DNA of 64,000 bases from an uncultured Planctomycetota bacterium (lineage in GTDB: Bacteria > Planctomycetota > Planctomycetia > Isosphaerales > Isosphaeraceae), in contig CAWJTV010000036.1 in assembly GCA_963845755.1 (NCBI GenBank), forward strand, positions 64,001-128,000, given 5' to 3'. Made by a program: the position numbers and the translations under genes. A model generated the notes under the pieces. That model searched no databases. It saw only the letters and a list, made by a program, of their open reading frames with translations, and was not told the origin of the DNA. Shown here one piece after another: positions 1,246 to 62,070 of the stretch. How positions within the stretch are numbered: the first letter of the stretch is position 1; each line of letters starts with the position of its first letter.

Positions 1246-3352
1246 TCACGCCTTCTTCCTCCGCGGCGCCGGCAAGGGCAAGGGCAAGGCCGACCCTTCC
1301 GCATATTTGGGACCGCCGATCGGCACGTGCGGGTTTCGGTTGAACTTGAAGAACGGCAGTCGGACGCCCCGGACCTTCACCATGTCGGCACGCTTCCGAC
1401 TGGGCGGGGCATAGGCCAGCGCCGCCTCCGCGGTCACGTCGTCGTCCTGGAACACACCGTCACCGCTGACCCCCAGGCCGCCGACGAGCGGCTTGGTCGC
1501 TCCGGTGCCGGTGAGGTCCTTGTACAACGGCGCACTGCCGGGGAAGAACACCACGCCGTTCTGGTTCGCCGGGTTGGACGGGTCGTGGAAGTTCGCGTTG
1601 GGGTTGAAGTCGGCGTAGCCCTGGAGGCTCTGATAGTCCTTGGCCGGCAGTGGAGCGCCCTGATTCGTGCCGTACGGGGTCACGCCACCGTCGGTCAAGA
1701 TCGAGCCCGGACCGGCCGGGTCGATATCGATCCCCTCGGGGAAATGCGGCAACGAGAGGTAGCGGAAGGTCCGGGCGGTGAGCGCCGTGCCGGCGGGAAT
1801 CCCCTTGATCTTGTCGGCCGGCTGGAGCTGGCTGGCGTTGTCGTAGTAGGCGACGTTGCGGGCCTTGGCGACCGCCACGCCGATCGAGAAATACGTGGCG
1901 TCCGGCATGCGGTACAGGCCCAGGATGTCGCCGTTCTCGTCGCTGACGGCGAAGACCATCCGGGTGGTACTGTTCAAGGGCAGTCGGATCTGGGCACGGA
2001 CCTGGCCGGCCTCGGCGATCCCGCGGGCCACGATCGCCTCGACGTCGGCTGCGGTCAGGTCGCCGCCGGCGTGGGGCGTCACCAGCCAGCCATAGGGCAC
2101 ACCCTGGCCGGGCAGGTAGATGTCCCCCTGCGCGTCAACCGGCTGGTCCGTGCCGTCATCGGGACTCCCCGCCCCGAATTTCGCGCCGTAGCTCAACACG
2201 TTCTTGACGCCTTCCAGCCCGCCGTGACCGAAGAGGTTGAGCGTGATGCCGACCAGGTCGATCCGGCCGAAGGGCTCGGTGAAATTGGGCAGCGCCGGCG
2301 CGCCGTTGACCGGGCCGTTGATCGGCACCCCGGCCTGCGAGCTCCCTCCGGCCGCCACGAACGCCATGTACTCGGCGACGTCCGAGTAATCCGGCTCCTT
2401 CTTGTTCCGCAGGAGCGGCGTGTTCAGAGTCGAGTTCTCTTCGGTAGCGTAGCCCGTGGTACCGGGGAAGAAGACGCCGATGCCGCCGACCTCGGCGAAG
2501 GTCCCGTCCGGCTGCTTCTTGTACAGGGGCAAGCCGCCGGGCAGGGTCGCAATCCCCCGCGACTGCGCCGTGGGCAGGATGCCCGTGACCTGCCCGTACG
2601 ACTCGGGCGCGACAAGGTTGCCGCCGGCCGGAATGTCCTGTGAGGGGACGTTGAACCGCGTCCCTGTGGCATTGCTGATGCTGTCCCGGTTCGTGCCCTC
2701 GATGTCGAAGAGATCGACCTGCGGCGTGAACTGGATGCCCGGGGGGAAGTGTCCCTTGATCGCCACCGGCGCGACGTAGCCCGGGCCGTAGATCGTCGAG
2801 TTGCCGCCCGGATCGGGGACGTCGGGGTTGGAGTTCGACCTCGCGCTGGGAGACCGTGGTCTGGCTGATGTCCTGGACGGTTCGGGAGGTCAAGGGCGCC
2901 GTGTCGTTGGCGAAATAGGCGCCCGTGCGAGCCAGCGAGACGGCGCCATCGATGGCGAAGACCTTGTTCGTCACATCGTCCGTGATCTGCGTCGAGACCC
3001 CGCTCTCGATCCGGACGCCCAGGATCGTCCCGTTGCGGTTGACCACGGCGATGATGGCATCATTCAGGTCGGTGGCCGCCGCCGCGCGCTCCAGGAGCGT
3101 CTTCACGTCGCCGGGCGTGAGCACCTGGTCGGGCAAGGGCGGCGCGGAGGGATCGTCGGGATTGGTCGGGTCGTAGCCATGCACGCCAGGAGCGATGTCG
3201 GTGCCGCTGGTGACGGCCGAGGAGACATGCGCGGCGGAGTGCCGGGCCGACGCGCTGAGCAGCATACGCGGCTCGAGCCGGTCACACGACAGGCCGACAA
3301 CTCCGTCCCACCTGCGGCGCGGACGGGAATCGCGCAAGCTCCACCATCGCAT
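1246..3352 (-). CDS. Secreted heme-binding protein with tandem GlcG/HbpS (DUF336-like) domains (indel near 2833)
   Basis: Planctomycete export motif DRLEPRMLLS. Two GlcG-like units (AIIAVVNRNGTILG...LPGGLPLYK...VGGIGV; MVFAVSDENGDILG...AVAKARNVAYY...FPGSAPLYK...VGGLGVSGDGVFQDD). Joins ORFs 2156..3487 and 1246..2766. Confidence 0.8.
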
Positions 3353-3789
3353 GGCGTTCCGTCGCCTCTCGCCTCGGGTTCCCCGGGCCGACGGGCCATG
3401 AGCCGCCGGACGCGCCGTACTCCGAGAAATGGGCCCTTGACCGCCGTCCCTATTGCCGACGGTCGATCGCGTTCCACGCTCCATCACTCAGGAGGATCGG
3501 CGGTCCTGCCGTCACAGATCACTTTTTCCGTGCGATCGTGGCCATGCATGTGATCGCGACAATCGAAAGATTCGTCAAAATCCTCAACTTTTCCTGTCGT
3601 GTGAACCGATCTTGAAGCGACAGACCATACCTTGTCTTCGTGGTATCGGTCCGGGCCGAATACGTCACGTCGTGAGTCACCGATCGACTCTTCATTTCCG
3701 GCAGGCGTCACCAGCCGTGTTCTCGCATGCCGTCGGGACACGTATCGTTCCTGCGCCCCAGCGCCAACGAAGATCTCCGGGGGAAATCG

Positions 3790-5786
3790 ATGGGGCTGAG
3801 CCGCCGAGCCTGGGTCCTGGCTACGACACTCGCGCGATCGGCGCGTGGTGCGGGCCGGTCGGCGCCCAGGAGCGAACGACGCCTTCGGTCCCGCCGCCGG
3901 CGGCGTCCGGCTCGCCCTCGGATCCGAGTCCGACGAACCTGCCTCCGGTCTTCCCCACTCCGGACTCGCCGAGCGAACGAATGACGCGGGACTCGGGGGC
4001 TACGAATCGCCCGCTCACCGGCCCTTGGCCCGGCGTGCTAAGGCGGCCGATCGACGTCCCGTCCTCGCCGGCCCTGGTCGGGCCGCTCTTCGACACCGGC
4101 CCGTTCCTCCAGGTACCGATGGATCCCCCGACCGGCTATACCGGACCGTCCGGAGTGCTCCCCACCGAGCCGCAGCAGTCGAGCCATTTCGTCCCGGTCG
4201 AGGATCGCTGGCGGATCGGATCTCCCACCTGGGACCGCTACGACAAAGGCCATCCGATCACCGACGAGTACCCCTACATGCCCGGCCGATTGCTCGACCC
4301 GTACAACCTCAACGTCTTCAAGGGGGATTACCCGATCCTCGGCCAGCATACGTTCCTCGACATCAGCGCGACGGCCAACCTCGACTTCGAAGGCCGTGAG
4401 ATCCCGACCCAGACCTCGGGGTTCGAGAGCACGGAGCGCCCGTTCTCCGGAAACTCGTTCGGCCGGCCCAACAGCTTCTTCACGCTCAACTTCTTCTCGT
4501 TCTCGTTCGACCTGTTCCACGGCGATGGGGCGTTCAAGCCGGTCGATTGGCGCATCAAGCTGGTCCCGACCCTGGGCGTCAGCAACTTCTCGTTCAGCGA
4601 GCAGGCGCAGACCAGCCCCAACGTGGCCCAGGGGACCATTCGCACCCGAGAAGTCTGGGCGCTCCAGGAGGCGTTCGCGGAGTACAAGCTGGCCGACCTC
4701 GGCCCCGATTACGATTTCGTCTCGGTCCGCGCCGGCAACCAGCCGTTCAACGCCGATTTCCGCGGATTCCTCTTCTCCGACATCAACCGGGGAGTCCGGC
4801 TCTTCGGCACCCAGCACTCGAATCGCGACCAGTTCAACCTGGTGTACTTCCGCCAGTGGGAAAAGGACACCAACACCGGCCTGAACACGTTCAACGACCG
4901 CGGACAGAACCTGATCTTCGCCAATTACTACCGCCAGGACTTCATCTTCCCCGGCTACACGGCGCAGGTGAGCCTGAACTACGACAACGACCCGGCGTCG
5001 ATCAAGTTCGACAAGAACCGGTTCCTGGTGCGCCCGGACCCCGTGGGCAACTTCCAGCCGCACGAGGTGGACGTGGCCTATCTGGGCATCGCGGGCGACG
5101 GACACTGGGGCCGGTTCAACCTGACGAACCAGTTCTACTGGGCGTTCGGCCGCGACAGCATGAACCCGCTGGCCAACCGCCCGCAGACGATCAATGCGCA
5201 GATGGCGGCGATCGAAGGCTCGTACGACCGCGACTGGGTGCGGTACCGGCTGTCATTCTTCTTCGCATCGGGGGACGGCAACGTCAACGACACGCACGCC
5301 ACCGGGTTCGACACGATCCTCGACGCGCCCAATTTCGCCGGCGGCCAGTTCAGCTTCTGGAACCGGCAGCAGATCGGCCTGCAAGGAGTGAACCTGGTAC
5401 AGCGGCTCAGCCTGGTGCCCGACCTGCGCTCGAGCAAGATCCAGGGCCAGGCGAACTTCGTCAACCCCGGGCTGATCCTGCCCACCTTCGGCATGGACTT
5501 CGAGCTGACGCCCACGCTCAAGCTGATCACCAACTACAACCTGGTCTGGTTCGACAAGACGGCCCCGTTACAGCAGTTCTTGTACCAGGGGAACATCGAC
5601 CGTTTCGTCGGGTTCGACATCGGCTATGGCTTCGAGTATCGACCGCTGTTGAGCGAGAACGTCGCGATCATCGGCGGCGTGCAGATGTTGATCCCCGGTC
5701 AGGGTTTCCGTGACATCTACAACAATTTCGACAATCGGGTCGGCGGCCTGGTCGCGGGGTTCCTCAATTCGGTGTTCACGTTCTAG
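3790..5786 (+). CDS. Putative outer-membrane beta-barrel protein (indel near 3835 in the signal peptide)
   Basis: ATG 3790 MGLSRRAWVLATTLA joins AIGAWCGPVGAQE. Pro-rich linker, then aromatic-rich alternating beta-strands, ending FLNSVFTF (terminal Phe, beta-signal-like). Confidence 0.7.
5712..5786 (+). repeat. 75-bp direct repeat, copy 1 (3' end of barrel gene; attL-like)
   Basis: 69/75 identical to 14729-14803. Confidence 0.95.
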
Positions 5787-20864: not shown

Positions 20865-21836
20865 GGGATTGCCCTCATGCGAGGTTCGGTCGGCTCGGTC
20901 GTGACGGCTGGGATTCCAGCATACCCGCTCACGCCGCGCCCGGAGTCGGAGACCGGGACCCAGCTCGTATAGAGCCTATCATAACGACCAGGTTGGACAG
21001 ATCGTGTCCAACGTGCCCCATGTTCACCTCGAGGAAATCCCCGTCCTCTCCGCGGTCATTCGGCGGTTGGAGTGGAACGCCGTCGTCACAATCGTCCCAA
21101 CCCGACCCGACAAATCCCCGAGTCCAGATGCCGGGCCCGACAACGGAGCGTCATCGCGGACGACCAGCAGTCGCCGTGCCCGTCGCGGCGGACGCGGGGG
21201 AGCGGTCGTCGAGCGGGCCGTCAGGTCGGATCTTCCCGTCGTCCGCCGCTTGCCCTCCCCTCGGCCCGCCGACGGCGGAGCGCAATCTCCCGTCAAGAAA
21301 TTTTTGAAAAGATTTTTATCTCCCACGGCTGTTGAGAGTTCGGAAGCAAAAAACCGTGGATCCGGTACTAGGTGCATTAACGCTTTTCCAAAGTTGCGGC
21401 ATCCTGATAATAGAGGGGCCGCACGATCACTTCCCCGCCACGTCCGAGGCATCAGCAACCCATGTCAGGGGACACCGGAACTCGCCGCCGTCCGCCGGCG
21501 GCCGGTCGCAAGACCCGACCGGACCAACTCGGCAGACGCTCGTCCCGAACTCGTTTCAGGCCAACGCGATCGGGGATGGGCCGCTTCGTAATTGATGTTA
21601 GAATGTGCCCCTTTGTGCCACGACCCGCACCGCAGGCCGCCTCCCGGGGGTCGGACGCGTTCCAAAACGGGGACCGGCACCTCGAAGACTCGGAGCCGGT
21701 CCCCATCGTTGGAAAGAGCGTCCAGGGATCGGCGATCGCCGTTGACGGGTGTGGGCATCGATGTTATGGTCCGGCCCCCTGGTCTCATTCCGCGCCGGGG
21801 TGATGGGAGCCCGTGGACACGGAGGTTGACCGCAAT

Positions 21837-24800
21837 ATGACCCGGTCCCGCTGCGCAACCTCGCCGCGCCTGCGAGCGAGCCAGGCCCTCGCCCTGGCGG
21901 TCCTCATCATGGCAGCCGTCCTGTTCGGGACACCCGGCCGTCGCGATGGGCATGAGGCGATGGCCCAGGCACCACCAATGTCCCCACCCTCGACACGGCC
22001 CGCCACACCCAGATCGACCGTGCCTTTCCCCGTTCCGCCCGAGCTCCAGGGCATCGATCTGTCCCGGCAGACGGCCGAGGAGGCAGCCGCCAGGAGCGCC
22101 GGCTGCGTGACGTGCCATCGGGGACAACACGAGCCCCACGGCAAGCCGGAGACGGTCCGGCTCGGCTGCGTGGACTGTCATGGCGGCGACCCGCGGGCGA
22201 CCGACCTGCAACACGCCCATGTCTGGCCGCGATTCCCCGACGCCTGGGGCGGTTCCGGCAACCCGGTCCGGTCGTACACGCTCCTGAATCACGAGTCGCC
22301 CGAGTTCATCCGGTTCGTCAATCCCGGCGACTTGCGAGTCGCCCACCTGGGTTGCGGCACGACCAACTGCCACGCCGACCAGGTGCTCCAGGTGCGCAAG
22401 AGCATGATGACCCACGGCGCGATGCTCTGGGGCTCGGCCCTGTACAATAACGGCTCGGTCCCGTTCAAGCCGGCGCGATTCGGCGAAAGCTACAGCATGC
22501 ACGGGGCCCCGCAACGGCTCCAGACGGTCCCACCGCCGACCCCGTTCGAGATGGAATGGAAGGCCGTGGTGCCGTTCCTCGACCCGCTGCCGCGGTTCGA
22601 GATGTCGCAGCCGGGGAACATCCTGCGGATCTTCGAGCGTGGCCGGCGCGACCCGCAGGAGGTCGGCATTCCGAACCCGTTTGAAGACCCCGGCAAGCCC
22701 CGCGCCGGGCTGAGCGCCCGCGGACTGGGGACCCGCAACCGCACCGACCCGGTCCTCGTCAGCTTGCAGAAGACCCGCCTGTTCGACCCGACGCTCAACT
22801 TCCTCGGGACCAACGACCATCCCGGCGACTATCGATCCAGCGGCTGCACCGCCTGCCACGTGATCTACGCCAACGACCGATCGCCGGTCAACTCCGGCCC
22901 GTACGCCGCCTTCGGCCACCAGGGACTGAGCGCTCAGGCTGACCCCATGATCCCGCGCGATGAGCCGGGCCACCCGATCCGGCACCGGTTCACTGTGGGA
23001 ATCCCGACCAGTCAATGTATCGTCTGCCACGTCCACCCGGGTACCAATGTCCTCAACTCATACACCGGCTACATGTGGTGGGACGAGGAGACCGACGGCG
23101 AGCTGATGTACCCGCCGCGACAGAAAGACCCCACCGCCGAGGAATTCACCCGCTCGATGATGTCGAATCCGGACGAGACGGCGGCGCGGGGGAACTGGTC
23201 CGACCCGGCGTTTCTGGAACGGGTCGCCGAGCTGAACCCGCAGGCGCGGCACACGCAGTTCGCCGACTTCCACGGCCACGGCTGGGTCTTCCGCGCCGTG
23301 TTCAAGAAGGATCGGCACGGGCAGTTGCTCGACCACCGCGGCGAGACCGTGACCGACCAATCGACCGCGGCGCTGATGGCGGCCGTGCGGCTGCCCGCCG
23401 AGCTGAAGGAGCGCTATCGCACCCGCAATGCCGCCGCGACCCAGCAGGCCGCGTTCGATCGCGCCGAGGCGCGGCGCGATGGGGTCCCTGTCCACCAGCT
23501 CGACATCCACCTGGAGAAGGGGATGCACTGCGTCGATTGCCACTTCATCCAGGACGTGCACGGCAACACCAAGCTCTACGGCGAGGTCCGCGCGGCCATC
23601 GAGATCCAGTGCAGCGACTGCCACGGCACGCCCGCTCGACGGGCCGGCCTGATCACCTCCGGGCCGGCCTCGGACACCTCCGCGGTCGAGTCGGGCAAGG
23701 ACGGTCGCGACCTCTCGGCCTTGCGGACACCCTTCCGACAGCGACGTTTCGAACGACGTGGCGGCGCGATCATCCAGCGCTCGATGGTCGAGCGCGACCT
23801 GGAATGGGAGATCACTCAGGTCGCCGACACGATCGATCCCAAATCCAGGCACTACAACGAGCGCGCCCACCTGGCCAAGACCGTGCGGTTCCAGGGCGAT
23901 CAGATGGTCTGGGGCGACATCCCCGGCGGCAAGGAGCAGGTTTGCGCCCACGCGAGCGAGAAGATGAGCTGCATCGCCTGCCACTCGGCCTGGAACCCGA
24001 GCTGCTTCGGCTGCCACCTGCCCCAGCGCGCAACAAGAAGATGCCCCAGCTCCACAACGAGGGCGACGTCACGCGCAACTACGTCTCCTACAATTTCCAG
24101 ACGCTGCGCGATGATGTGTTCATGCTGGCCAAGGACGGCAATGCGACCGGCAACCGGATCGGCCCGGTCCGGTCGTCGTGCGCGATCCACGTCGGGTCGT
24201 ACAACGCCAACCGCGAGTCGATCTATGTCCAGCAGCAGACGATCTCGGGCGAGGGGATGTCGGGGGTCGCCTTCAGCACGAACGTGCCGCATACCGTGCG
24301 GGGCGGGCCGCCGGTCCGGCACGATCCGCGCCGTCCGGATAACGGCCGCCCGGCCAATGCGGGTGCCTATCAAGCCGGCCACTCCGACACCAAGACCTGC
24401 ACCGACTGCCACCTCGCGAAGGGCGATGACAACAATGCGATCCTGGCGCAGCTCCTGATGCAGGGGACGAATTATGTCAACTTCATCGGGCGATACTGCT
24501 GGGTCGCGGCGGGGGACCACGGCCTGGCGGCGGTGGTGGTCACCGAGCGCGACGAGCCCCAGGCCGTCATCGGCAGCTCGCTCCACCGACTCGCCTATCC
24601 CGAATACTACCGCGAGCACGTCGAGCGCGGCGGCAGACTGGTCCACTCGCACGAGCATTCCGGCAGGGACGTCGGCGAACGCCTCCGCCGGCCGGAGGTC
24701 CTCTCGATCCAGGCGCGCGGCGAGTACCTCTATGCCGCCTGCGGCGAAGCGGGGCTCCGGGTCTTCGACATCGCGTTCATCGATCACAAGGGCTTCTCGG

Positions 24801-25852
24801 AACGGATCGTCACCGCGCCGGTGTCTCCGATGGGTCAGCGCTTCTTCGTCCGGACCTCGTATTCCACGGCGGTCGCCGCGCCCACCACGACCGCGCCCGA
24901 CCCGACCCGCAGCCATCGCCCGGAAAACTCCGAAAAGCCCGTCCACGCGCTCTATGGCTACATCTACGTCACGGACCGCGACGAGGGCCTGATCCTCGTC
25001 CCCGCCGCGACCCTACTCGACGGCAACCCCCTGAACAACTTCCTCGGCCGCGAGCTGACCTTCAATCCCGACGGCGTCCTCAAGGGGGCACGTGGGATCA
25101 CGATCGTGGGGACGTATGCGTACATCTCGTGCGACGCCGGGCTCGTCGTGATCGCGCTCGACGACCCGAAGCACCCGCGCGTGACGGCCGTGGTGGGCGA
25201 GCCGTTCGTGAAGCATCCGCGGGCGGTCCAGGCCCAGTTTCGCTACGCTTATGCCTGCGACACGGAAGGCATCAAGGTCCTGGATATCACCGACCTGGCC
25301 CACCCCCGGCCGATCGCGATGCTCCCGATGCAGGATGCCCGGAGCATCTACCTGGCGCGGACCTACGCCTACGTGGCGGCCGGGAAGGAAGGGCTGGTGA
25401 TCCTCGACATCGAGCGGCCGGCGCAGCCGCGGGTCGATCAGGTGTTCAATCCCGGTGGCTGCATCAACGAGCTGAACGACGTGAAACTGGGGATCACGTA
25501 TGTCAGCGAGTTCGCCTACCTGGCCGACGGGCGCAACGGGCTGCGCGTGGTGCAGCTCACTTCGCCCGAGACGCCGGGTAACGCTGGGTTCAGTCCGCGG
25601 CCTACCCCCCAGCTCATCGCGAATTTCAAGCTACCGGTCGGCGCCCGCGCGCTGGCGATCTCGAAGGGGCTCGACCGCGACCGCGCCGTGGACGAGTCGG
25701 GCAACCAGATCGGAGTCTTCGGGCGCATCGGCGCCCGGCCCCTCAATGCCGAGGAGCAGCGCAGGCTGTACATTCACAACAATCAGATCTGGAAAGTCAG
25801 CGACGATCCGCAGGATTCAATCTACCGGCGCATTCCGGAACGCGCGCCGTAA
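21837..25852 (+). CDS. Large multiheme cytochrome c with C-terminal LVIVD repeats (indel near 24030)
   Basis: Signal/anchor helix; 9 CxxCH (CVTCH, CVDCH, CTACH, CIVCH, CVDCH, CSDCH, CIACH, CFGCH, CTDCH) plus CGTTNCH; repeats such as [16 protein letters not shown] and [16 protein letters not shown]. Confidence 0.88.
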
Positions 25853-35854: not shown

Positions 35855-37316
35855 TCATCGAGACGGCGGTGTCGGGGAACGCGGCTCGAGTCCCGACGGG
35901 AGCCGGACGGGCTCGAAACCTTTCGGGCTGTCCAACCCGTCCGGGAACACGAGCTGTTCGCGGAGTCCCTCGAGCCGAGCCCGCAGCCGGTCCTGCTCCG
36001 CTTTTCGCCCGGGAGCCAGATCGATCCAGGACTGGCGCAGCGGCACCAGGGCCAGGTAGCGCTGGGCCGCCTCGTCCCAGCTCGCGATCCGATTCCCGGC
36101 ATCCTCACGATCGAGCCGGCCGATCAGCGTCTGGACATCATCGGCATGGAATCGCCTCGAGGCGACCGCCCTGAGGCATTGGTCCACCGAGGAGGTCGCC
36201 TCCCGCAGAGCGACCCGGACGGCCTTCACATCGGGGACGTCCTTCTCCATCTGGGCGGACAGCCGGCGCAGCGATTCGAGGGACGGCCGGGCATCCGGCT
36301 CGGCCACGATCTCCTCGACCAGGGGGAGCGTCCAGGAGCCCCAGCGCGGTGAGCCGATCGACGTCCCCGACGGTCGAGGTGCACGACGCCAGGCCTGGTC
36401 GCGCAGGTCGTGATGACAGGAGAAGCAGCCGTACTCGGTGAACTCCGGCCAGGGCGCCGCGTGCTGGTCAACCGCGTCGATCCGCGATCGTAACAGCTCC
36501 AGCGACGACTTCATGACGGCCAGCCGGCCGATCGCCCAGGCGTGCGCCGGGAAATCCACGGCGCGCGCGGGAGAGGACGGGGCCGTCGGCGTCGCATTGT
36601 CCCCCTTCTCAACCCAGTGGGGCGGCATATTATCCAGATAAGCCGAGAGCTCGAAGATCAGCCGCGGGTGGCCGGCGGCGATCAAGTCGTGGTTCACGTC
36701 GCGGACCGGCTGCCCATTGCCGGCGCCGGCGCCGACATGGCAGCCGGCGCAGAGTCTGGGCGCGATGCACGAGATCCTGGGCATTCACCAGGCCCAGCGC
36801 CTGCTTCTCGGGCCAGGGCCGGTTTCTCCACCCAATCGTCGTATGCGGACCGAGCCAGCGCCCGGAACCGCCATGACAGGACTCACAGCCCACGCCGTCG
36901 GAGTCCATCCACGCCGTCGTCGTCAGCTCCGACGCCGGGCGCGGCGTCGTGTGGCAGGCCAGGCAGCGATCGTCCCGATGAGCGGGCTTCACCCGGGCCG
37001 GGTTGACCGCGAGGTTGCGGACGATCCGATCCGAGCGTGGGTCGAACAGGACCTGGTAGGCTCGGGAATGGGCGTCGTCGGCCAGCCAGGTGGTGTGCTC
37101 ATTCCCGAGGATCGTCGAGAGCGAGGACTCTCTCGGCGCGATACTCCCGTGACAGGCCGTCGCCGAGCACGAGCCGGACCCTCGGAACTCGGATCCGGAC
37201 GGCGCCTCCACCGTATAAAGCCGGCGAACCTGACGACCCGGCGTCTCATCTCCGCGGCAGAGCACGACGAGCCAGACTGCGGCCAGCAGTAACGGACTCC
37301 AGCGTGCTCGACTCAT
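35855..37316 (-). CDS. Cytochrome c554-like multiheme protein (indel near 36750)
   Basis: Signal peptide; CSATACH, CLACH, GVGCESCHG, CAGCH, CFSCHH; HDLIAAGHPRL. Confidence 0.88.
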
Positions 37317-37972: not shown

Positions 37973-38949
37973 ATGCTGGTCTTCGACCGTGACAACTGGC
38001 CGTATCATCGCTCCTGGTGTCTCGCCATCGTGTTGGCGACGGCGGCGGGCGCGATCTGGTACGTCATCTACGGGTTCAGCTCGGGCTCCTGGCACTGGCC
38101 CGGCGGCGGCAGTCCGCCCGGCTTCGCGTACGGGGCGCTGGGCGGCGCGATCATCCTGTTCGAGATGCTGCTCTGGCCGCGCAAGTCGCTCTGGCGGGGA
38201 TGGCGATTGGGCCGCACCAAGTGGTGGATGACGGGGCACATCTGGCTGGGCCTCCTCGCGCTCCCCTTGCTGTTGCTGCACGGCGGGTTCCATTTCAATC
38301 CCGCCACCTCCACGCTCGCCGCCGTCCTCATGTGGTTGCTGGTCGTCGTGGTCGGCAGTGGCATCTTCGGCCTGGTCGTTCAGAATATCGTCCCGCGGCT
38401 CATGCTCGAGCGGTTACCGGCCGAAACGATCACCTCGCAGATCGACCGCGTGCTGGCCCAGTATCGCGATGATGCCGAGTGGTTAGTGCGCGCCACCTGC
38501 GGGGACCCGCCGGCCGATGGGCTGGGCGAGGCCGCCCGTGAGGCCCCGGGATTCGTCGCGATCGGTACGGTACGGCAGGTCGGGCGGGTGCAGGGCAAGG
38601 TCGTCCAGGCCGCCTTCGAAGCCGGCTACGTGCCCGAGTCCGAGCCGCTGCTCGCGTTCTACCGCGAGCTGGTCGAGCCCTACCTGCGGCGAAGTCCGGG
38701 ACGGGGCTTCCGCTGGGATCGTCGCGGCGGACCGCACCGCTGTTCCAGGCCCTCAAGGATCGCCTGCGCCCGGAGGCCCATCCCGTCGTCGATCGACTGG
38801 CCGACCTCTGCGACCAGCGCCGCCAGTTCGACCTCCAGGCCCGTCTACACAGTTGGCTGTTCACCTGGCTCGGCGTCCATGTCGCCCTGTCGGTCGCGCT
38901 GCTGGTATTGATGGTCATCCATGTTTTCTTGGCGTTGAAGTATGTCTGA
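37973..38949 (+). CDS. Integral membrane protein, probable di-heme cytochrome b (indel near 38690)
   Basis: Two TM helices each with a His pair 14 residues apart: GHIWLGLLALPLLLLHGG and VHVALSVALLVLMVIHV. Confidence 0.75.
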
Positions 38950-40527
38950 AACGAGCAAGCAGCGACAGTCGCGGATCGACCTGGGCTATTATCGGCTCCC
39001 CGACGCCCAGTCGCGCCGGCGGCGCTGGCTGATCCTGTCGGCCCTGCTGATCGCGGTGGCCTGGGTCGCGGCCGCACCGATCTGGAGCCAGGGGCGGGAC
39101 GGCGCGCGTGCGGTTCTTCCAGCAGGCCGGGCTGGCCTCGAAAGGGCCGCTGGCCCGGCCGCACGCGATGTGGGAGTCCAACTGCGAGGCGTGCCACGTC
39201 CCGTTCACGCCGGTCAACGGCTCGCGGTGGTCGCCGTCCTTGCGGAGCGGGTCGCATGCCGGCGAGGATTCCTGCCGGGCCTGCCACGCCGGGCCGAGCC
39301 ACCACGCGAGCCAGCTCGCGCGGGACGTCCCCTCGTGCGCCGAGTGCCATCGCGATCATCGCGGTCGGGACGCCTCGCTCCTGGTCATGGACGACTCGGC
39401 CTGCACTTCCTGTCACCGGGACCTGTCCCAGCACCGCGACCCGGCCGCCGGCCGGATGCTGACGGCGGCCTCGGTGACCCGGTTCGGCGCCGACCCGGCC
39501 CAGCACCCCGGCTTCACACCGCCGCTTGGCGTGCCGGGGCCCGACTCGGGGCGGATCAAGTTCAGCCACGCCCGGCACCTGGCCAATGGCCTGACGATGG
39601 CGAAAGACGGCGTCCCGTTCACGTTCGCCAGCCTGGACGAGCCGGACCGCGCCCGATACGGCTGGACCACCGGCCGGGACAGCGAGTCCATCCAGCTCCG
39701 GTGCGACTCATGCCATCGACTCGATGGCGGGGACAAGGAAAGCCCGGCCCTCCCGCGTTCGCCGGGTGCGTCGATGCGGCCGGTCACGTATGAGACGGAC
39801 TGTCGCGCCTGCCATCCGCTCCCTTTCGACGCGAAGGATCCTCAGCGGAAGATCCGTCATGGCCTCCGGCCGCGAGAGGTCGTCGAGGAGCTGAATCAGC
39901 TCTACACCGCACAGGCGGTCAAGTCCGATCCCGCCCTGCTCCGCCGGTTCGTGCCTCCGCGGCCGATCCCCGGCCGGCCCGTGGCCGAGGAGCAGGCGCG
40001 AGCCGAGAAGGCCGCGGCGGACAGGACGCTGTCGGCCCTCAAGCGGCTCTTCGGCTCGGCCGTCGACGAGGGGGTGAGGAGCAGCCAGGGGCTCCCGATG
40101 GGGCGAGGGGGCTGCGTCGAGTGCCACGAGCTGACACCTTCGTCCCGGCCGCTGGTGGACCTGGACGCGGTATCGAGCCTGGAACTCAAGCCGGTCGTCG
40201 TGCGGTCGCTGTGGTACGAGAGCGCCGCCTTTAACCACGCGGCCCACCGGGCGCTGGAGTGCGCGGGCTGCCACGCGGGAGCCTCGGAGTTCGACCGACC
40301 CGGCCCGCCTGCTGCTGCCGGATGTCGGGCAATGCACGAGTTGCCATGCCCCTGCGACAACCCAGGGGAGTCGTCCGCAAGGCGGGGCCGGTGTATCGTG
40401 CGTCGAGTGCCACCGCTATCATGACGGCGATCATCCTACCCGGGGGGTCGGGTCCACCGCGCGCCGGGGCTCGGTGGAAATGAGCCTGGAGCAGTTCCTG
40501 AGCGGTGGACCGCCGCGCGGGCGGTGA
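38942..40527 (+). CDS. Membrane-anchored decaheme cytochrome c (c3-like); indels near 39105 and 40290
   Basis: N-terminal TM; 10 CxxCH (CEACH, CRACH, CAECH, CTSCH, CDSCH, CRACH, CVECH, CAGCH, CTSCH, CVECH); FSHARH and FNHAAH distal ligands; overlaps the upstream stop. Confidence 0.88.
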
Positions 40528-40577
40528 GCTTTGCCGATGGCGCGGGCGGTGAGCAAGGCGACCGGATAACTTCGGAT

Positions 40578-45714: not shown

Positions 45715-50057
<4,343 letters not shown>

Positions 50058-50486: not shown

Positions 50487-54901
<4,415 letters not shown>

Positions 54902-55011: not shown

Positions 55012-57144
55012 CTATGAAACGCCGCCGAACCTCACGAAGATCTCCTCAATCTCCTCAGCCGTGAGTAGCGTCCCCGATTGGGGCGAATCGACGATGGTGA
55101 ACCCGTGGGCGCGGCCGTCGTACCAGGGGTCGGCGTTGTCGTAGCCGGCGCGGAGGGGTTTGGGCACGCCGGTGGCCGGGTCGGTGACGCGGTCGTCGTC
55201 ACCGTAGACCTGCCGGCGACGGTCCGATTCGGCCCGGTCGAGGAGGGCCGCCAGGCCGCGGAGCGAGGCTCCGCTGTCGGGCGATACCGAGAGGATGCAA
55301 CGACGGGGGTCGCGCGGCGACTCGGAGATGAACACCGAGAGGCCCAGGAATCCCTCGCCGCCCGGCGATCGCTCCCGATCGCTCCGGGCCCAGTCCTTGA
55401 AGAACATGCAGCGCTCGGGATCATCCAGGTTCTGGACGTCGCGGACCAGGAGTGCGTCCAACTCCACGCGTCCGCCAAATTGCCCCGGGAAGCTCAGCCG
55501 CGCTTGATGCGCGTGGGACGACGGGTCGGCCAGCTTGCGGCGATAGCGGTTGACGTCGGCCAGGACGTCTTGCCGGTCCTGTTCGTCGAACAGGCCGGGG
55601 CAGGCGAAGGCGTCGATCGACGGCAAGGCCCGCCCATCGTGCCGACTCCGTTCCAGGATGAACGCGACCAGATCCAGCCCTTGCTGGACACACTCTCTCC
55701 AGTACGCGTGATCGGCCGGCCGGCCCAGGCGTCCGTGGCGATTGAGCAACTGCATGTAAGCCGCGTAAGGCGCGAACGGGTTGCTCAAGGAGTGGCCGAT
55801 CGAGCCCTCGTCGATCTTGTCGGCATAACGGGCCAGGGCCTCGGTGCCCAGGGGGAATTCGCCGGTCGTGAGGACGGTGACCGCCAGATAGGCCGAGGCG
55901 ACCGAATCGAAGTCGGGCGACTCGTGAAGCACGATGGTGAACGGTGCGGTCGGGTCGAGCTGGGGTTGCACCGCGCCCAGTACAAGCTCGGGGTTCGAGC
56001 TGACGAGCTGGGTCGTCGAGCCTTCGTAGGCTTCCAGGTGATGGTGGTCGAGCACGCCGGGCCGGAGGTCGTTGCCGACGTCCAGGAACAACCGGCCCGG
56101 GGCCGGCCCCCCCTTCGGCGCCGAGGAGCCGGGGCCGACAAAAACGAAGCGGATCGCATCGCGGCGGACGAGCGGCAAGGTCGTGGGCATGGTGGTGACC
56201 TTTCTCCGGCGCGGCGGACCGGACGGCGCGGCTCCCGGCCGACCCTCCAGGTAGGCATCGAGGTCCGCGGCGAATTCGGCCATGCCCGCGTACCGGTCTT
56301 CGGGCTCGCGGGCGCACGCCCTGAGAGTGATGGCTCGCAGGGCCGGGTCGACCTCGAGCGGAGCGGGCGAGGACGAATCGAGAATGGGGGTGTCTTCGTC
56401 GGGATCGGCCGGGGCGGTTGGACCGGGGGTCGCCGTCGGTGTCCCGCGTTTGAGCAGGTTGACGAGCACACAACCGAGAGCGTAGATGTCGCACTTCGGA
56501 CCGATCTTTTCCGGGTCGCCGAAGAGCTGTTCGGGCGCCATGTAACGAACGGTGCCGGGCCGGACGTTGGTCGAGCTCAGTCGCGTCGCCTCATCGTCCA
56601 GCCGGAGCGCCAGTCCGAAGTCGATGACGACCGGGGTACCGTCGGGCGTGATGACGATGTTCGAGGGCTTCAGGTCGCGATGCACCACGTTCTCGCCGTG
56701 GGCCGCCGCCATGGCGATGGCCACGTCCCGGACGATGGCCGCGCTCTGCCAGGCATTGAGGTTCGTGACTTCCGACAGCGGCGTCCCCGGGACATACCGC
56801 ATCACCAGGTAGTGTGTGCTGGCGACCTGGCCGAGATCGATCACCCAGGCCAGCCCGGGGTGAACCAGCCGCGCGGCATAGCGGGCCTCGCGGCGGAATC
56901 GCTCCATGAGCCGAGGCTTGGCGAGGAAGTCTCGGCGGGGGATCTTCACAGCGACGTGGATCTCCAGCTTGAGGTCTCGGGCGAGAAAGACCATTCCCAT
57001 GCCGCCCCCGCCCAGATACTCCAGAAGCCGATACCGGCCGAACTCCTGAGGAAAAGGGCCCTTCGGATTCGGCATGAGGTCGGACCCGCTGGAGGATCCC
57101 GGATCGCCGATATCCCGCTCAGGGTCGGTGGTCGGGTCCGACAT
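55012..57144 (-). CDS. Ser/Thr kinase fused to a DHH-like phosphoesterase domain (start uncertain; ORF open to 57267)
   Basis: LGGGGMG, HRDLKPSN, DFG, YMAPEQ; then FLDVG, VLDHHH, HESPDFD, DKIDEG, PWYDGR. Confidence 0.8.
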   Translation of the reverse strand: MSDPTTDPERDIGDPGSSSGSDLMPNPKGPFPQEFGRYRLLEYLGGGGMGMVFLARDLKLEIHVAVKIPRRDFLAKPRLMERFRREARYAARLVHPGLAWVIDLGQVASTHYLVMRYVPGTPLSEVTNLNAWQSAAIVRDVAIAMAAAHGENVVHRDLKPSNIVITPDGTPVVIDFGLALRLDDEATRLSSTNVRPGTVRYMAPEQLFGDPEKIGPKCDIYALGCVLVNLLKRGTPTATPGPTAPADPDEDTPILDSSSPAPLEVDPALRAITLRACAREPEDRYAGMAEFAADLDAYLEGRPGAAPSGPPRRRKVTTMPTTLPLVRRDAIRFVFVGPGSSAPKGGPAPGRLFLDVGNDLRPGVLDHHHLEAYEGSTTQLVSSNPELVLGAVQPQLDPTAPFTIVLHESPDFDSVASAYLAVTVLTTGEFPLGTEALARYADKIDEGSIGHSLSNPFAPYAAYMQLLNRHGRLGRPADHAYWRECVQQGLDLVAFILERSRHDGRALPSIDAFACPGLFDEQDRQDVLADVNRYRRKLADPSSHAHQARLSFPGQFGGRVELDALLVRDVQNLDDPERCMFFKDWARSDRERSPGGEGFLGLSVFISESPRDPRRCILSVSPDSGASLRGLAALLDRAESDRRRQVYGDDDRVTDPATGVPKPLRAGYDNADPWYDGRAHGFTIVDSPQSGTLLTAEEIEEIFVRFGGVS

Positions 57145-57309
57145 CACTGGCGAGGAAACCGAGGTCGGTTCATCCGGATTGGCCGACGGGCCGATAGGGC
57201 TCGATGATGGAGGTTCCGGCGTTGGCAAGGTGGGCTCGAGACCGTCCACGGAAGGCCCTCCAAACAAGCCGATGAAGTCCTCAGGAGACGCGTGCCGGAC
57301 GAAGATCGC

Positions 57310-57627: not shown

Positions 57628-59515
57628 TCAGGAGGTCTCGCCCACCACGTCCCAGACCGGTTGTTCGCCGAGTTCTTCCAGGCCCTTGGGCAAGATGGTG
57701 CGAGGCGAGTCGTCGCGGTATCGGAACCGGCCTCGCACTTCGTCGTGCGTCCGCCGGCTGATGCAGGGGATACCCGGCTGGGCCTCGCTCTCCAGGCGAG
57801 CTCCCAGATTGACGGTCGTCCCGATCGCGGTGTAATCCATCAGATCGTAGGTGCCGACGTTCCCCAGCACGGCGTCGCCCGTGCTGATGCCGATCCGGAT
57901 GGCGAAGGGACGCAGGCCGAGGATCGTGCGCGGCTCGTTGAAGTCCGCCATCTCCCGGCAGAGATCCAGGCCGGCCGAGACGGCGCACGCGCTGCGTGAT
58001 GATGTCCGCGGAACATCGCCATGAAGCCGTCGCCGCGGAAGACGCTCACCAGGGCGTCGTGCCGGCGGAGCGTGGCGACCATGTCGGACATCATTTGATT
58101 GAGGGTCATCATGACCACCTCGGGCGGATTGTCGAGGGCATAGGACGTCGAGCCCTTGAGGTCGAGGAACAGCACCGTGAGCGGCTCGGTCGTCCCGGCG
58201 ATGAGCGAGTCGGTCTCCTCCGGCATGCCGCGGCCCCGGACACGGCGGAAGATCCGGGCGGAATACGCGTCGCCATTGACGACCTTCAGCTCCTCGCCGA
58301 TCTGCCGGACCAGATGGGCGCGGCGGCAGGATTCGGCCAGGTCCAGGGCCGAGAGGTACTCACGCGTGGTCAGCGGCCGTGGCTCGCCGGAGGCACGGGA
58401 CAGCCGCGCGATCTCCCACTGCGTCAGGGCCTGCTCGGCCTGTTCTCGCGTCCGGGTGAAATGGTCGAGTGCGGCACGGAGCTTCTGCTTGGCCTCGTCG
58501 TACCGGCCCTGCTGACGGCGGATCATCCCCCAGGATCGGTTGACGTGGGCCAGCCCTTCCGCGAACTCGACCCGACGAAAGAGGTCCTCGGCCTGCTGGG
58601 CCACGGCCTCGGCGGCCTCGACTTGATCGGTCGCCAGGTGGAGCAGGGCGCGATCCTTGCGGGCATAGCCTTCGCTGACGGCCCAACGCCCGGTCGAGGC
58701 GCGAATGCTCGCGTCGAGCCAGCCGGTCGCATCCTCCCAATGCCCGCGCGCTTCGCTCGCTCGGGCGGCCGCGGCGGCGCGGTTGCCACGCTCCAGCGCG
58801 ATCCGCCCGAGACTGTTCTGCATCAGCGCCTCGCCCCATCCGTCGCGCGTGTTCTGCGCGATGGCCAGGTCTTCCAGGAAGCACTTCTCGGCTTGATCCA
58901 GATATCCCCAGTCGAGATGAAGCCGGCCGAGGTTGCCGTAGCTGACCGCCAGGCCGGCCTGATCATCCCATGCCTTCTTGCGCCGATCGCTTGCCGGAAG
59001 AACTCCTCGGCGGCGTGAAAGTTGTCCCGGGCGGCGTAGACCATGCCGAACGTGTCGAGGATCCGCCCGGTGCCGTAATGGTCCCCGCCCAGCAGCCGGA
59101 GCGACTCGCGCAATTCGCGCAGGGCGCCGTCCAGGTCGCTCTTGTGGAACGCGTTGGCCCCGCGAATGTGGGCCACGGCGGCCCGAAGCAGGGTGCTCTC
59201 CGGCTCCGGATCGACCGAATCGAGCAACCGCTCGGCCTCTTCGAACTGCCGCTGACGCATCGCGAGGAACGCCTGGATAAATCGTCTCCATCTCTGGGCC
59301 GCGGGACTCTCGTCGGCATCTTGCAGCAGCGTCTGCGCCGCGTCGTACGCGCCGCGTTCGGCGGCCATCCAGCCGGCGAAGAACGCCAGATCATTCCTGC
59401 GCCCGGCGTCGGACGTCGCGGCGATTTCTTCCCTCAGCTTCTGCAAGCCCATCTCCCAGCCGTACTGGCGGAGCAGGGACAGGACTTTGTCGCCGGTCTC
59501 CGGTTGATTGATCAT
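57628..59515 (-). CDS. TPR-repeat class III nucleotide cyclase (indels near 58985 and 57985)
   Basis: ATG 8 bp after the upstream stop; TPR helices (GLAVSYGNLGRL); VLFLDLKGST, FRGDG, RIGISTG, YTAIGTTVNLGARLES. Confidence 0.88.
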
Positions 59516-59523
59516 GAGTGCTT

Positions 59524-62070
59524 CTACCCTCGTGCGTCCTGTCGACGCACCAGATCCAGCAGCTCCGTGCCTTTCATACGATGGGCGGCGTCGTGGGGGC
59601 AGGCGTAGACGCAGCTCGGCTCCGCGTTCGGGCCGAGGCTGGTACACAGGTCGCAGGTCGTGGCCTTGCGCACGTCGGCCTTCCTCGACTTGTCGTACTG
59701 CTCGACCATGTTGATGTTGCCATAAGGGCAATTCTCGGCACAGAGCCCGCAGCCGATACACCAATCCTCGATGACGATCTCACCTCCCGATCCGGGCGAC
59801 GATCGTCGCCGGATCGATCCTACCGGACAGCCGACCATGCAATACGGATCGAGGCACGAGCGGCACGAGCTGGCCACGAGGAACTGGTCGAACCGCAGTC
59901 CTTCGCGGATCAGGCGGGTCACGCCCTGGTGCGTGTCGGCGCAGGCCTTGGTGCATTCGTCGCAGCGGGTGCATTTCACCAGGTCGAGGACCAGCAGGCT
60001 CTGGGCCTCCATCAATCCCTGGTCCAGGAACGACGCGAGCGGCGTCTCGCGAACTTGTTGCAGGTCGCGCAGGTTGGCCTCGATGCGCTGGCGGGCCTCG
60101 GCGATCACCGCGTCGCGGACGGCGGGCGCCTGGTCGAGGATGGCGCGGAAGTCCGCCGGGCTGATTCGCACCAGGTCCACGTGATCGAGCGCCGTGCAGG
60201 TCGCAACCCGGACGCCGGCCGGGTTCAGCTCGCGCAGCTCGGGCAGGTCGGAGACCACGCCGATCTCGCCGATGTAGCCGCCCGGCCCCACGTAGTTCAG
60301 GACGCGCTCGCCACCGGTCCGTGCCTGCGAGACCTTGACGAACCCGGTCCGCACCAGGTAGAGCCCGTCGGCCGCGGGCGCCCCCTGGCGGAAGATCACC
60401 TGGCCCGGCTCGCAGCGTTGTAGCGAGATTCGCGGCCGCAGATCGTCGACGATCCGTTGAAACCGGGGCTCGTCGTCGCGCAACGGCGCGAACAAGGGGA
60501 TGCTTCGCAGGTGGTTGTCGATGGCGCGCGCCCGGTACTTCGCCTCGAGATCGCGGCGAAACGACGGGCTGCGCTGCATGATGTAGAGCACGTTGCGGAG
60601 CATCTCCAGCACCGTGCAATCCTCCGCCGCGCGGACGGTCGCCGAGTGGGGGTAATGACTCATGCAGGTCATCTCGCCGAAGATGTCGCCTTCGCGCAGC
60701 GTCGCCTGGGGCCGTGCGTAGGGCAAGGCAACCGGGGCGTTGACCGGGATGAACTCGCGCCGCCGATCGTCGGGGCGCGTGGTCATCCGGGTGGTGAATC
60801 GGCCCAGGACGCCCCAGAGGCCGCGCTGGGGCTGATTCTCGACGTGATCGGTCGGGGTGCGGATGTAGATCTCGACCGAGCCCTTCTCGACGAAGAAGGC
60901 CGTCGAGCCATACTCGCCCTCCCGGCAGATGATCTCGCCCTTTCGGAACTCGCGCCGTTTGATCGCCCGGATGTTCCACTGCAGGAACGGGCGCGACACT
61001 CCGCGGAACGCCTCGCGGATCTCCGGGTTCTCGTGCTGGATCAAGCGGTCGACATCGACCGCCCCGCCGCCGGGGAGCTGGGTCTCGACGACTCCGCGGT
61101 GCATCAAGGCGCCGGTGGGGCAGTCGTCGGAGCACTCGCCGCACGCCACGCAGGACGATCCGCCCATCGGGGAGTCGAGGTCGAAGGCGATCCGCGCCTG
61201 ATAGCCTTTGCCCATCCGGCCGATGACGTGGTTCTCCTTGATCACGTCGCAGCCCCGCACGCAGCGGTCGCAGAGGATGCAGGCGTTGTGATCGACGGCG
61301 ATGACCAGGGATGAGTCGTCGCGACGGAGGTCGGCCGCCCGCCCCTCGAACCGGTCCCCGGCCACCCCGAACCGCCGGGCCAGGGCCTCCAGCTCGCAGT
61401 CGCCGGCGCGCTGACGTTCCTTGACGCACGGGGTCGGATGATCGGACATCAGCAGCGACAGCAACGTCGTCACGGCGGACTCGACCCGATGCCGGGCGCC
61501 CGCGTCGGGCGACGCGATGGTGTCGACGATCATCCCGTCCTCGACGCGATGCTGGCACGCGGGGAGGAGCTTGTCGTCGACCTCGACCTTCCCCGTCCGC
61601 CGTCGGAACCGGGCCAGTTGGACGACGCAAACCCGACACACCGCCACCGGGTCCATGTAAGCCGTGTGGCAGAGTATCGGGATCGGGTTATTCGCCTCGC
61701 CGGCCATCCGCTTGAGCGGGCCCACGGAGGGCGAACGGCCGCCCGCTCGCGGGCCGAGATCGGTCCCGTTGCCCTCGACTTTCTCGTAGCGGCGGCCGAC
61801 GGCGTCGTAGATCGTGGTCGGTCGGGGGATGATCTGACCGTCCCCATCATACCTGGGGTCGCCTTGCTCGTCCGTGGCCACCACGGCCTTCTTGACCACG
61901 ACCTCCTCGCCGTCGATTGTGAGCGTGACCTCCTTATCGAGTTCCTCGCGCGTGGCGGCGTCATAGCGGATCAACCGCCCATCGAGATCGCGAACGAATA
62001 GTCCTTCATCCGACCATTCCCATTCGTCGCGATCCTCATTCGGAAGTTCGGCCCGCGGTTCTATGCTCAT
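59524..62070 (-). CDS. Fe-S protein: NuoG/FdsA/HoxU-like N-terminal module + two cNMP-binding domains + 4x[4Fe-4S] ferredoxin
   Basis: LCH...CRVC...PAC; CILCDRCVRGC; CVACGECSDDCP; GEIICREG...FGEM...SATVRA; GQVIFRQG...IGEI...RVATCTA; CTRCDECTKAC, CRSCLDPYCMVGCP, CIGCGLCAENCP, CDLC...CVYACP. Confidence 0.9.
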   Translation of the reverse strand: MSIEPRAELPNEDRDEWEWSDEGLFVRDLDGRLIRYDAATREELDKEVTLTIDGEEVVVKKAVVATDEQGDPRYDGDGQIIPRPTTIYDAVGRRYEKVEGNGTDLGPRAGGRSPSVGPLKRMAGEANNPIPILCHTAYMDPVAVCRVCVVQLARFRRRTGKVEVDDKLLPACQHRVEDGMIVDTIASPDAGARHRVESAVTTLLSLLMSDHPTPCVKERQRAGDCELEALARRFGVAGDRFEGRAADLRRDDSSLVIAVDHNACILCDRCVRGCDVIKENHVIGRMGKGYQARIAFDLDSPMGGSSCVACGECSDDCPTGALMHRGVVETQLPGGGAVDVDRLIQHENPEIREAFRGVSRPFLQWNIRAIKRREFRKGEIICREGEYGSTAFFVEKGSVEIYIRTPTDHVENQPQRGLWGVLGRFTTRMTTRPDDRRREFIPVNAPVALPYARPQATLREGDIFGEMTCMSHYPHSATVRAAEDCTVLEMLRNVLYIMQRSPSFRRDLEAKYRARAIDNHLRSIPLFAPLRDDEPRFQRIVDDLRPRISLQRCEPGQVIFRQGAPAADGLYLVRTGFVKVSQARTGGERVLNYVGPGGYIGEIGVVSDLPELRELNPAGVRVATCTALDHVDLVRISPADFRAILDQAPAVRDAVIAEARQRIEANLRDLQQVRETPLASFLDQGLMEAQSLLVLDLVKCTRCDECTKACADTHQGVTRLIREGLRFDQFLVASSCRSCLDPYCMVGCPVGSIRRRSSPGSGGEIVIEDWCIGCGLCAENCPYGNINMVEQYDKSRKADVRKATTCDLCTSLGPNAEPSCVYACPHDAAHRMKGTELLDLVRRQDARG

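Follow-up and report, generated by a model that had tools for sequence, protein, structure and literature searches.

A tandem cyclic-nucleotide-binding iron–sulphur protein as a candidate gated subunit of an NADH-fed transmembrane electron conduit in Planctomycetota

In a 64,000-nucleotide stretch of the genome of an uncultured planctomycete of the family Isosphaeraceae (positions 64,001 to 128,000 of contig CAWJTV010000036.1; hereafter the window), one gene encodes an 848-residue protein in which two domains of the type that binds cyclic nucleoside monophosphates (cNMPs) stand between an N-terminal iron–sulphur (Fe–S) module and a C-terminal domain for four [4Fe–4S] clusters (Table 1). We propose, with a probability of about 0.5, that this protein is the Fe–S subunit, on the cytoplasmic side, of a PCC4/ptd-type conduit that NADH feeds and that carries electrons across the membrane, the flow being gated by the cNMP domains. 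From the domain content, the ligand motifs, the linkage of genes and the exchange of modules described below, we infer the formation of such a complex, the direction of flow, the ligand and the gating.

In the proposed mechanism, NADH would reduce the FMN of the adjoining NuoEF protein, and electrons would pass to the [2Fe–2S] and two [4Fe–4S] clusters of the N-terminal module, past a degenerate His-ligated side site. They would then jump to the C-terminal 4×[4Fe–4S] domain, in the manner of WorA to WorS in the WorABCSL complex, and continue through two b haems of a membrane protein to a decahaem and other periplasmic cytochromes. On binding nucleotide, the paired cNMP domains would shift their hinge helices, as those of PKA and PKG do, causing the C-terminal Fe–S domain to dock or undock. 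The cNMP pair could therefore act as a hinge for the last domain rather than as an insulator placed in a straight line.

Domain make-up and exchangeable input modules

Profile searches, together with the 16 Cys residues of the C-terminal domain, bear out the domain order proposed in an earlier note made from the sequence alone, which had described a NuoG/FdsA/HoxU-type Fe–S module, two CAP-like domains and a DmsB/NrfC-type 4×[4Fe–4S] domain. Residues 123–328 match NuoG as well as HoxU (NF005745, E 5e-35) and [FeFe] hydrogenase A6 (E 4e-41), each of them well under the cut-offs for full-length proteins, and the N-terminal module reaches no NCBIfam cut-off in the profile search of the 848-residue protein. 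When the two cNMP halves are scored separately, Pfam cNMP_binding matches with E-values of 1e-17 and 4e-17, and both sequence and fold place these middle domains with PKA and PKG regulatory domains. The model of domain B superposes on the CNB-B domain of PKG II with a Z score of 19.3 and a root-mean-square deviation of 2.1 over 145 aligned residues, and fold searches with the predicted model return only cNMP domains among the matches listed. Residues 688–837, which contain the 16 Cys residues, match DmsB/NrfC/HydN-type proteins below curated cut-offs (PF13247 gives the 848-residue protein 24.8 bits against a cut-off of 26.2). Sequence matches of this domain in the PDB include AorA (8c0z), HycB and 9mqx_E, and a predicted C-terminal helix (residues 834–847) closes it. 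A molybdopterin or hydrogenase catalytic domain, the absence of which had also been pointed out, is not reported in profile searches of the 848-residue protein.

The Cys ligands of the [2Fe–2S] and six [4Fe–4S] sites are invariant in the aligned loci (Table 1; gapped rows are dropped from the motif counts). The His-ligated site of the N-terminal module follows a different course. Of the close homologs, 115 of 117 keep its H-x3-C-x9-C pattern, whereas 68 of 87 distant representatives and 55 of 72 loci have lost it; the canonical H-x3-C-x2-C-x5-C motif occurs in none of these 117, 87 and 72 sequences covering the site. The motif had been called atypical, which holds in that it is never canonical, but the site is also dispensable in most distant homologs. 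The His-ligated cluster of HydABC connects protomers (PMC9499530), and WorA functions without cluster A3, exchanging electrons with a 4×[4Fe–4S] subunit across 10.7 Å (PMC12318220). Because of these two precedents, and taking A3 to be the equivalent of the His-ligated site, we regard the degenerate site as likely to be a side branch. WorA and its 4×[4Fe–4S] partner chain match the two ends of the 848-residue protein in sequence, and the complex shows that such a module, although it has no catalytic domain, can dock a 4×[4Fe–4S] subunit at 10.7 Å.

The protein belongs to a family: of 8000 candidates that were scored, 3859 match it at E≤1e-20. Homologs carry Isosphaeraceae names, the best 120 are 52–82% identical over the best local alignment, the best 80 genome loci have Planctomycetota titles, and 12 of 41 related genomes are matched, two of the 12 through the N-terminal module only. 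Four locus records titled ‘Candidatus Kuenenia stuttgartiensis’ (L006, L008, L030 and L053) are typical Planctomycetia-like loci; these labels may be loose, and we draw no conclusion about anammox bacteria.

A domain-architecture search, a check that the earlier note had suggested, finds the cNMP–cNMP–4×[4Fe–4S] core with varied N-termini. Among 150 representatives, 66 span all three regions and 57 span only the cNMP and C-terminal regions; some of the latter are fragments, and several have long, differing N-termini. In 25 that were scanned, these alternative N-termini contain FHA domains, low-complexity stretches or an apparently further cNMP-like domain, and an FHA or apparent third cNMP-like domain takes the place of the redox input in P0197, P0198, P0211, P0207 and P0213. 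One relative (P0150) is a natural fusion with NuoEF ahead of the core. In Sphingobium herbicidovorans, the core instead carries an N-terminal pyridine nucleotide-disulphide reductase (flavin reductase) domain, unrelated to the HoxU/HydA module, and adjoins the same genes for the membrane protein, decahaem cytochrome, multihaem/LVIVD protein, beta-barrel and haem-binding protein. This cluster lies on plasmid pMSHV (L182:7568-24945), where the decahaem cytochrome bears an FHA-like domain and two neighbours encode calcineurin-like phosphoesterases, possibly cNMP phosphodiesterases.

Judged from these architectures, the conserved unit is cNMP–cNMP–4×[4Fe–4S] and the NAD(P)H input is exchangeable. 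The cNMP domains had been described as inserted between two relays; from the Sphingobium protein and the FHA N-termini, the architecture is better read as an N-terminal swap on a cNMP2–Fe–S core. The occurrence of HoxU/HydA-type and flavin-reductase inputs on one core suggests that two different NAD(P)H inputs converge on it.

Nucleotide sites, nearby cyclases and candidate ligand

Conservation in distant homologs reaches 89–99% at the cassette residues G465, E466, R475, G601, E602 and R621, compared with a median of 46%. Within the cNMP region, the columns of the nucleotide-binding Gly, Glu and Arg rank in the top 7% by conservation, and no more than 3 of 204 sequences are without both cassette Arg residues. 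Of the 40 long loci, 14 have a cyclase within 10 kb, whereas approximately 0.13 would be expected from the 42 places at which GAF cyclases occur across 291 Mb of related genomes; this expectation rests on one query, and kin among the loci are not independent. Because the nucleotide-binding residues are highly conserved and cyclases are enriched near the gene, an allosteric switch that gates electron flow is plausible. The same evidence makes it improbable that the wire is constitutive, with the cNMP domains serving as spacers or scaffolds, or binding another small ligand, without control of flow: few columns are as conserved as those of the residues that bind phosphate and ribose, which Sphingobium largely keeps, and cyclases are enriched nearby. 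A constitutive wire would nevertheless fit the alteration of both sites in the window copy, the repeated origin of R475H at several tips of the tree and the loss of the site-B Arg in some metagenome members, and CRP-fold domains often bind ligands other than cNMPs.

The window copy departs from the consensus at both sites. In site A, the cassette Arg is replaced by His475 (YPHSATV); site B keeps G601, E602 and R621 (GVRVATC), with Val at the position that is usually Thr (T622V). These two motifs, and HPTPC-x9-C at the His-ligated site, read in the sequence as the earlier note gave them. All 77 aligned loci have Arg at position 475, as do 115 of the 120 close homologs and 132 of the 140 distant representatives that were aligned, and site A has Arg in 209 of 217 distant homologs (96%); His475 is shared with four close and four distant sequences. 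One of the comparisons at this position took in 110 of 121 proteins, those of 740–1000 residues. In a tree of 54 close sequences (residues 340–840), whose deep support is weak, five His475 carriers fall at four places among Arg carriers. One contig from another run (depth 4.8) covers positions 60525–60806 with six differences, none of the three listed falling at the His codon. Given this contig and the presence of His in four close homologs, we reject a sequencing error, and given the dominance of Arg and the scattered placement at tips, we reject His475 as a mark of family specificity. By its distribution, His475 is a real but recurrent tip-level change, which suggests a weakened site A in this lineage, not a new specificity. 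The earlier note, which did not see how rare His475 is within the family, had argued that the ligand may not be cAMP. This may be right on the grounds of the residue after the cassette Arg and of the linked cyclases, both discussed below, but it does not follow from His475, which is confined to scattered tips. Because R475H and T622V depart from the consensus, site A of the window copy is probably weak and the guanine preference of its site B probably reduced.

Across the family, Ser or Thr follows the cassette Arg in 178 of 217 sequences at site A and in 153 of 213 at site B. In PKG, a Thr at this position contacts guanine, and its replacement raises the cGMP requirement 27–29-fold for Ala or Val and fourfold for Ser (PMC3080414). 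Of 16 linked cyclases with readable sites, 13 have Asp at the first base-selecting site and 15 have Gly at the second; two linked cyclases have Lys. Cya2, a guanylyl cyclase with a Glu/Gly pair, becomes an adenylyl cyclase upon the E488K substitution (PMC4215837, PMC5995499). Going by the first base-selecting site, which in them is mostly Asp and rarely Lys (counts below), planctomycete GAF-class III cyclases may make cGMP or another non-cAMP messenger. Because Arg–Ser/Thr sites occur together with Asp/Gly cyclases, the family ligand is more likely to be cGMP than cAMP: we would give cGMP slightly better than even odds, hold cAMP or both nucleotides as a tentative second choice and consider some other ligand, or none, unlikely.

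Several observations weigh against cGMP or, in the fourth case below, against the model as a whole. First, in the isolated CNB-A domain of PKG, Thr confers only a twofold preference for cGMP (PMC3080414). Second, the Asp of the linked cyclases differs from the Glu of Cya2, and the two cyclases near the gene in the source genome carry Thr/Gly and Val/Thr, not Asp/Gly. Third, Asp at the first site is found lineage-wide, in 23 of 29 planctomycete GAF-class III cyclases (Lys in 1 of 29; 41 related genomes, L096–L125), a control that rules out the Asp/Gly signature as specific to this system. Fourth, cyclase-free neighbourhoods account for 26 of the 40 long loci and 20 of 22 metagenome loci. Finally, Escherichia coli CRP has an Arg–Ser pair, yet its ligand is cAMP.

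Cluster partners and genomic setting

Wherever a locus offers 2.5 kb of flank or more, a NuoEF gene lies upstream of the gene (62 of 62 loci). The 40 loci longer than 20 kb contain NuoEF in 40, the membrane protein in 37, the decahaem cytochrome in 37, a class III cyclase in 14, the beta-barrel in 12, the haem-binding protein in 10, the multihaem/LVIVD protein in 10 and a class II phosphodiesterase in 2 (4 of 80 loci), and the 22 metagenome loci longer than 14 kb (of 56) contain NuoEF in 22, the membrane protein in 18, the decahaem in 18 and a cyclase in 2. Homologs of the membrane protein carry two W-x3-H-x13-H motifs in 46 of 48 cases and SGxxG in 47 of 48. Both His motifs are present in the window copy, and such motifs have been linked to two b haems (He et al. 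2017, PMC5566968). Where measurable, the NuoEF tail after the last cluster ligand is 18–61 residues long, and it has no CxxCxxCxxxC motif in 44 of 47 sequences. Electron bifurcation was rejected, as the NuoEF partner lacks the extra C-terminal Fe–S domains of bifurcating (HydABC-type) enzymes; so was a missing hydrogenase or formate dehydrogenase partner, none of which recurs among neighbour families seen in at least 3 of 82 loci. The source genome has two other NuoEF plus NuoG-type loci, on contigs C11 and C47.

Table 1 Coordinates of the 848-residue protein, its sites and the genes linked to it in the window
Feature	Position	Strand	Remarks
Fe–S/cNMP/cNMP/Fe–S protein, PtdE-like core with HoxU/HydA-type N-terminal module	59524..62070	-	Unbroken open reading frame, 848 residues
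[2Fe–2S] ligands C134, C145, C148, C172	61555..61671	-	All four kept in 71/71 aligned loci; aligns with HydA/NuoG chains
Degenerate His-ligated cluster site H211-x3-C215-x9-C225	61396..61440	-	Canonical second Cys absent; Glu, Gln or His nearby; aligned to HydA chains
2×[4Fe–4S] domain, C264–C317	61120..61281	-	All 8 Cys kept in 74/74 aligned loci
cNMP domain A, cassette GE(465–466)...H475-S476-A477	60571..61023	-	Insert of ~50 residues; His codon 60646–60648; family has Arg
cNMP domain B, cassette GE(601–602)...R621-V622-A623	60076..60513	-	Family has R-T-A
4×[4Fe–4S] DmsB/HycB/WorS-type domain	59560..60009	-	All 16 Cys kept in 78/78 aligned loci
NuoE–NuoF (HoxEF-like) fusion, 652 residues	62112..64000	-	Start 70 bases past the window; end 41 bases before the 848-residue gene
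TPR-class III nucleotide cyclase	57628..59515	-	Start 8 bases after the stop of the 848-residue gene; frameshifts near 58983 and 57990
Decahaem cytochrome c, PtdG type	38942..40540	+	8+2 CxxCH across frameshifts
Inner-membrane protein, PCC4 IMP/PtdF type, predicted di-haem b	37973..38949	+	Two W-x3-H-x13-H motifs; one frameshift
Tetrahaem cytochrome c, PtdD type	35855..37316	-	4 CxxCH and one longer CxxxxCH; one frameshift
GAF-class III cyclase, 585 residues	34076..35833	-	Thr/Gly at base-selecting positions; best PDB sequence match Cya2
Large multihaem/LVIVD-repeat protein	21813..25831	+	Travels with cluster; one frameshift
Predicted outer-membrane beta-barrel, porin candidate	3453..5783	+	Travels with cluster; ~18 long strands
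HbpS-like haem-binding protein	1249..3121	-	Travels with cluster

Some features sit less easily with an outward conduit fed by NADH. The predicted model has pLDDT values below 50 in both Fe–S regions, and many relatives of the core have no NAD(P)H module in the chain, their N-termini being FHA, low-complexity or extra cNMP stretches. In the window, the membrane and cytochrome partners lie 19–25 kb from the 848-residue gene on the other strand, and a pentahaem gene, present in many related loci, is found in the source genome only on the separate contig C11. Moreover, the same conduit might carry electrons inward, NAD+ or quinone being the acceptor and the donor lying in the periplasm or outside the cell; cNMP could control such flow or play no part in it. 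NuoEF-type modules are reversible, as in HoxFU and FdsABG, and in 6 of 80 loci (L022, L025, L028 and L030–L032) a Pyr_redox (Pfam) flavoprotein gene, which we take to be soluble transhydrogenase-like, directly follows the core gene. PCC4 clusters are found in Fe(II) oxidisers, for which flow was modelled as inward to the quinone pool (PMC5566968). Inward flow is unlikely, however, in that the NuoEF partner is without the extra clusters of bifurcating enzymes and no gene of the cluster looks capable of uphill NAD+ reduction. In addition, proteins of the ferric-reductase/NOX fold normally pass electrons outward from NAD(P)H.

A second alternative to the NADH-fed conduit is a signalling or stress device, not a respiratory branch, in which cNMP would turn on a NOX-like drain of NADH, or the redox state of the clusters would set how much cNMP the protein holds, tying redox to a kinase/cyclase network. 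The membrane protein has His motifs of the ferric-reductase/NOX type, some relatives have FHA domains where the input module would stand, the window gene adjoins a downstream TPR cyclase and Ser/Thr kinases, and a redox-responsive di-haem cyclase, CyaC, is reported to exist (PMC10463352). We nevertheless consider such a device quite improbable, given that 4-, 5- and 10-haem cytochromes and a beta-barrel suit bulk electron transfer better and that the TPR cyclase and the C-terminal part of the neighbouring kinase are neighbours in 0 of 136 related loci. The adjoining TPR cyclase was likewise rejected as a conserved part of the system, with TPR parts in 0 of the 136 loci; this neighbour is specific to the source genome. 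It keeps both metal-binding Asp residues and the Asn/Arg pair, with Val at the usual Lys/Glu base-selecting site, and its frameshifts, which correspond to compensating indels in contigs of other runs, are probably assembly errors.

It is very unlikely that the system of the source genome is decaying after a rearrangement, with both cassette changes the product of relaxed selection. In favour of decay are the split and inversion of the cluster, the off-consensus residues of the linked cyclase and of both cassettes, and a genome of the same genus (G001, 87% complete) that gives no match to the 848-residue protein or to the membrane protein. Against decay, the 848-residue frame and the Cys ligands of the [2Fe–2S] and six [4Fe–4S] sites are intact, and frameshifts are scattered throughout the 14.3-Mb assembly. 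Single-base frameshifts are also numerous across the whole window in otherwise conserved genes; they are probably assembly errors, and the two that were checked are mended in contigs of other runs.

The cluster's two parts face each other across approximately 16 kb of Ser/Thr kinase and WD40 genes (40867–57267), several of which share an unannotated N-terminal domain (LPLPLAKL.../FPTPLAKL...). The last of this block (55012–57267, minus strand) joins a Ser/Thr kinase to a C-terminal domain of approximately 380 residues, which has DHH and D-x-D motifs and no Pfam match and may resemble a DHH-type phosphoesterase. Repeats occupy positions 37541–37970, upstream of the membrane gene, and their translation gives two near-copies of ...DSRFEIRDSRWDDFWIRNLESRIGN.... 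A transposase-like gene at 7045–8461 (minus strand) looks IS1182-like. The model of the beta-barrel is of low confidence (pLDDT 49), with Foldseek matches to AlgE and porins. A second HbpS-like gene stands beside a second GAF-cyclase in the source genome (C25:47600-52000).

Comparison with known systems

Known control of bacterial respiration by cAMP or cGMP acts through transcription. If the proposed conduit exists, a cNMP sensor inside the electron path would allow control on a scale of seconds. A further reading, which we hold as speculative, is that of a widespread bacterial electron-export line switched directly by cGMP bound inside the Fe–S wire, in which contact is made or broken between an interchangeable NAD(P)H input and a membrane di-haem/multihaem output, with GAF-regulated guanylyl-type cyclases encoded alongside. 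If true, such a line would amount to a molecular wire gated by its ligand, a counterpart in redox terms of the cyclic-nucleotide-gated channels. Soil and aquatic bacteria commonly carry the cluster, and for PCC4/ptd our analysis adds a likely input (NAD(P)H, through two unrelated modules), a structural template (WorA–WorS) and a candidate ligand (cGMP). These proposals could be tested on soluble domains, and cultured strains such as Tautonia sociabilis, Rhodopirellula sallentina and Sphingobium herbicidovorans could supply them; the window copy is a poor choice because both of its sites deviate from the consensus.

Our literature searches, in which only the ptd preprint proved relevant, gave no study of this fusion, although the supplements of the ptd preprint and the supplementary PCC4 figures may show the architecture, and none joining PCC4 porin-cytochrome clusters with cyclic nucleotides. 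The main text of He et al. 2017 (PMC5566968) does not contain ‘cyclic’, ‘cAMP’ or ‘nucleotide-binding’, and gating by cNMP is proposed neither there nor in the accessible text of the ptd preprint, which names a cNMP domain.

One close relative is the ptdABCDEFG cluster (bioRxiv 10.1101/2023.11.21.568154), published as of function unknown and reported in Planctomycetes too. As the preprint describes it, PtdE resembles the window protein in joining cNMP-binding and 4Fe–4S domains, and its neighbours are a membrane protein resembling ferric reductase and cytochromes of the tetra-, penta- and decahaem kinds. The differences lie in the input, the clusters and the gene arrangement. The ptd input is the FAD/NAD(P) oxidoreductase PtdC, whereas here NuoEF and the fused HoxU/HydA-type module occupy that place (PtdC was not searched for genome-wide), and in Sphingobium the core itself is joined to a PtdC-like domain. 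The preprint assigns two clusters to PtdE, whereas the 16 Cys residues of the C-terminal domain here correspond to four, and the cluster is split in the source genome.

PCC4 subgroup II (PMC5566968), which includes Planctomycetes, likewise combines an inner-membrane protein with two WX3HX13H motifs and SGXXG, 4-, 5- and 10-haem cytochromes and a pfam13247-type Fe–S gene, a profile that the window protein matches below the cut-off. Its Fe–S gene lies upstream of the membrane gene, an order also seen in Sphingobium and many metagenome loci. In the planctomycete loci, by contrast, this order is reversed, with the membrane gene upstream, or the pair is split. Where PCC4 has a porin, a linked beta-barrel is predicted in 12 of 40 loci here, a porin candidate by its predicted fold.

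For the internal relay, a structural precedent is WorABCSL of Acetomicrobium mobile (PMC12318220, PDB 9MQX), in which a NuoG/BfuA-type module without catalytic domain or A3 exchanges electrons directly with a 4×[4Fe–4S] subunit ending in a docking helix. There, however, the parts are separate chains, a tungsten enzyme stands at the far end, the B subunit bifurcates and cNMP domains are absent. The diaphorase modules HoxEFU, the NuoEFG N-module, HydABC and FdsABG share the FMN/NADH subunit and the relay of one [2Fe–2S] and two [4Fe–4S] clusters; compared with them, the window protein lacks a catalytic domain and reaches none of the NCBIfam cut-offs, and its His-ligated site is degenerate. The PKA regulatory subunit and PKG, which provide the top sequence and fold matches, share the tandem cNMP domains with GE...R cassettes, whereas the window protein has an Fe–S output instead of a kinase and inserts in both cassettes or their flanks. 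Compared by gene make-up and description, the system appears to be a variant of PtdE/PCC4 that, on the evidence of its parts, would work like a diaphorase-fed transmembrane conduit; it falls outside the families of hydrogenases, formate dehydrogenases, complex I and bifurcating enzymes.

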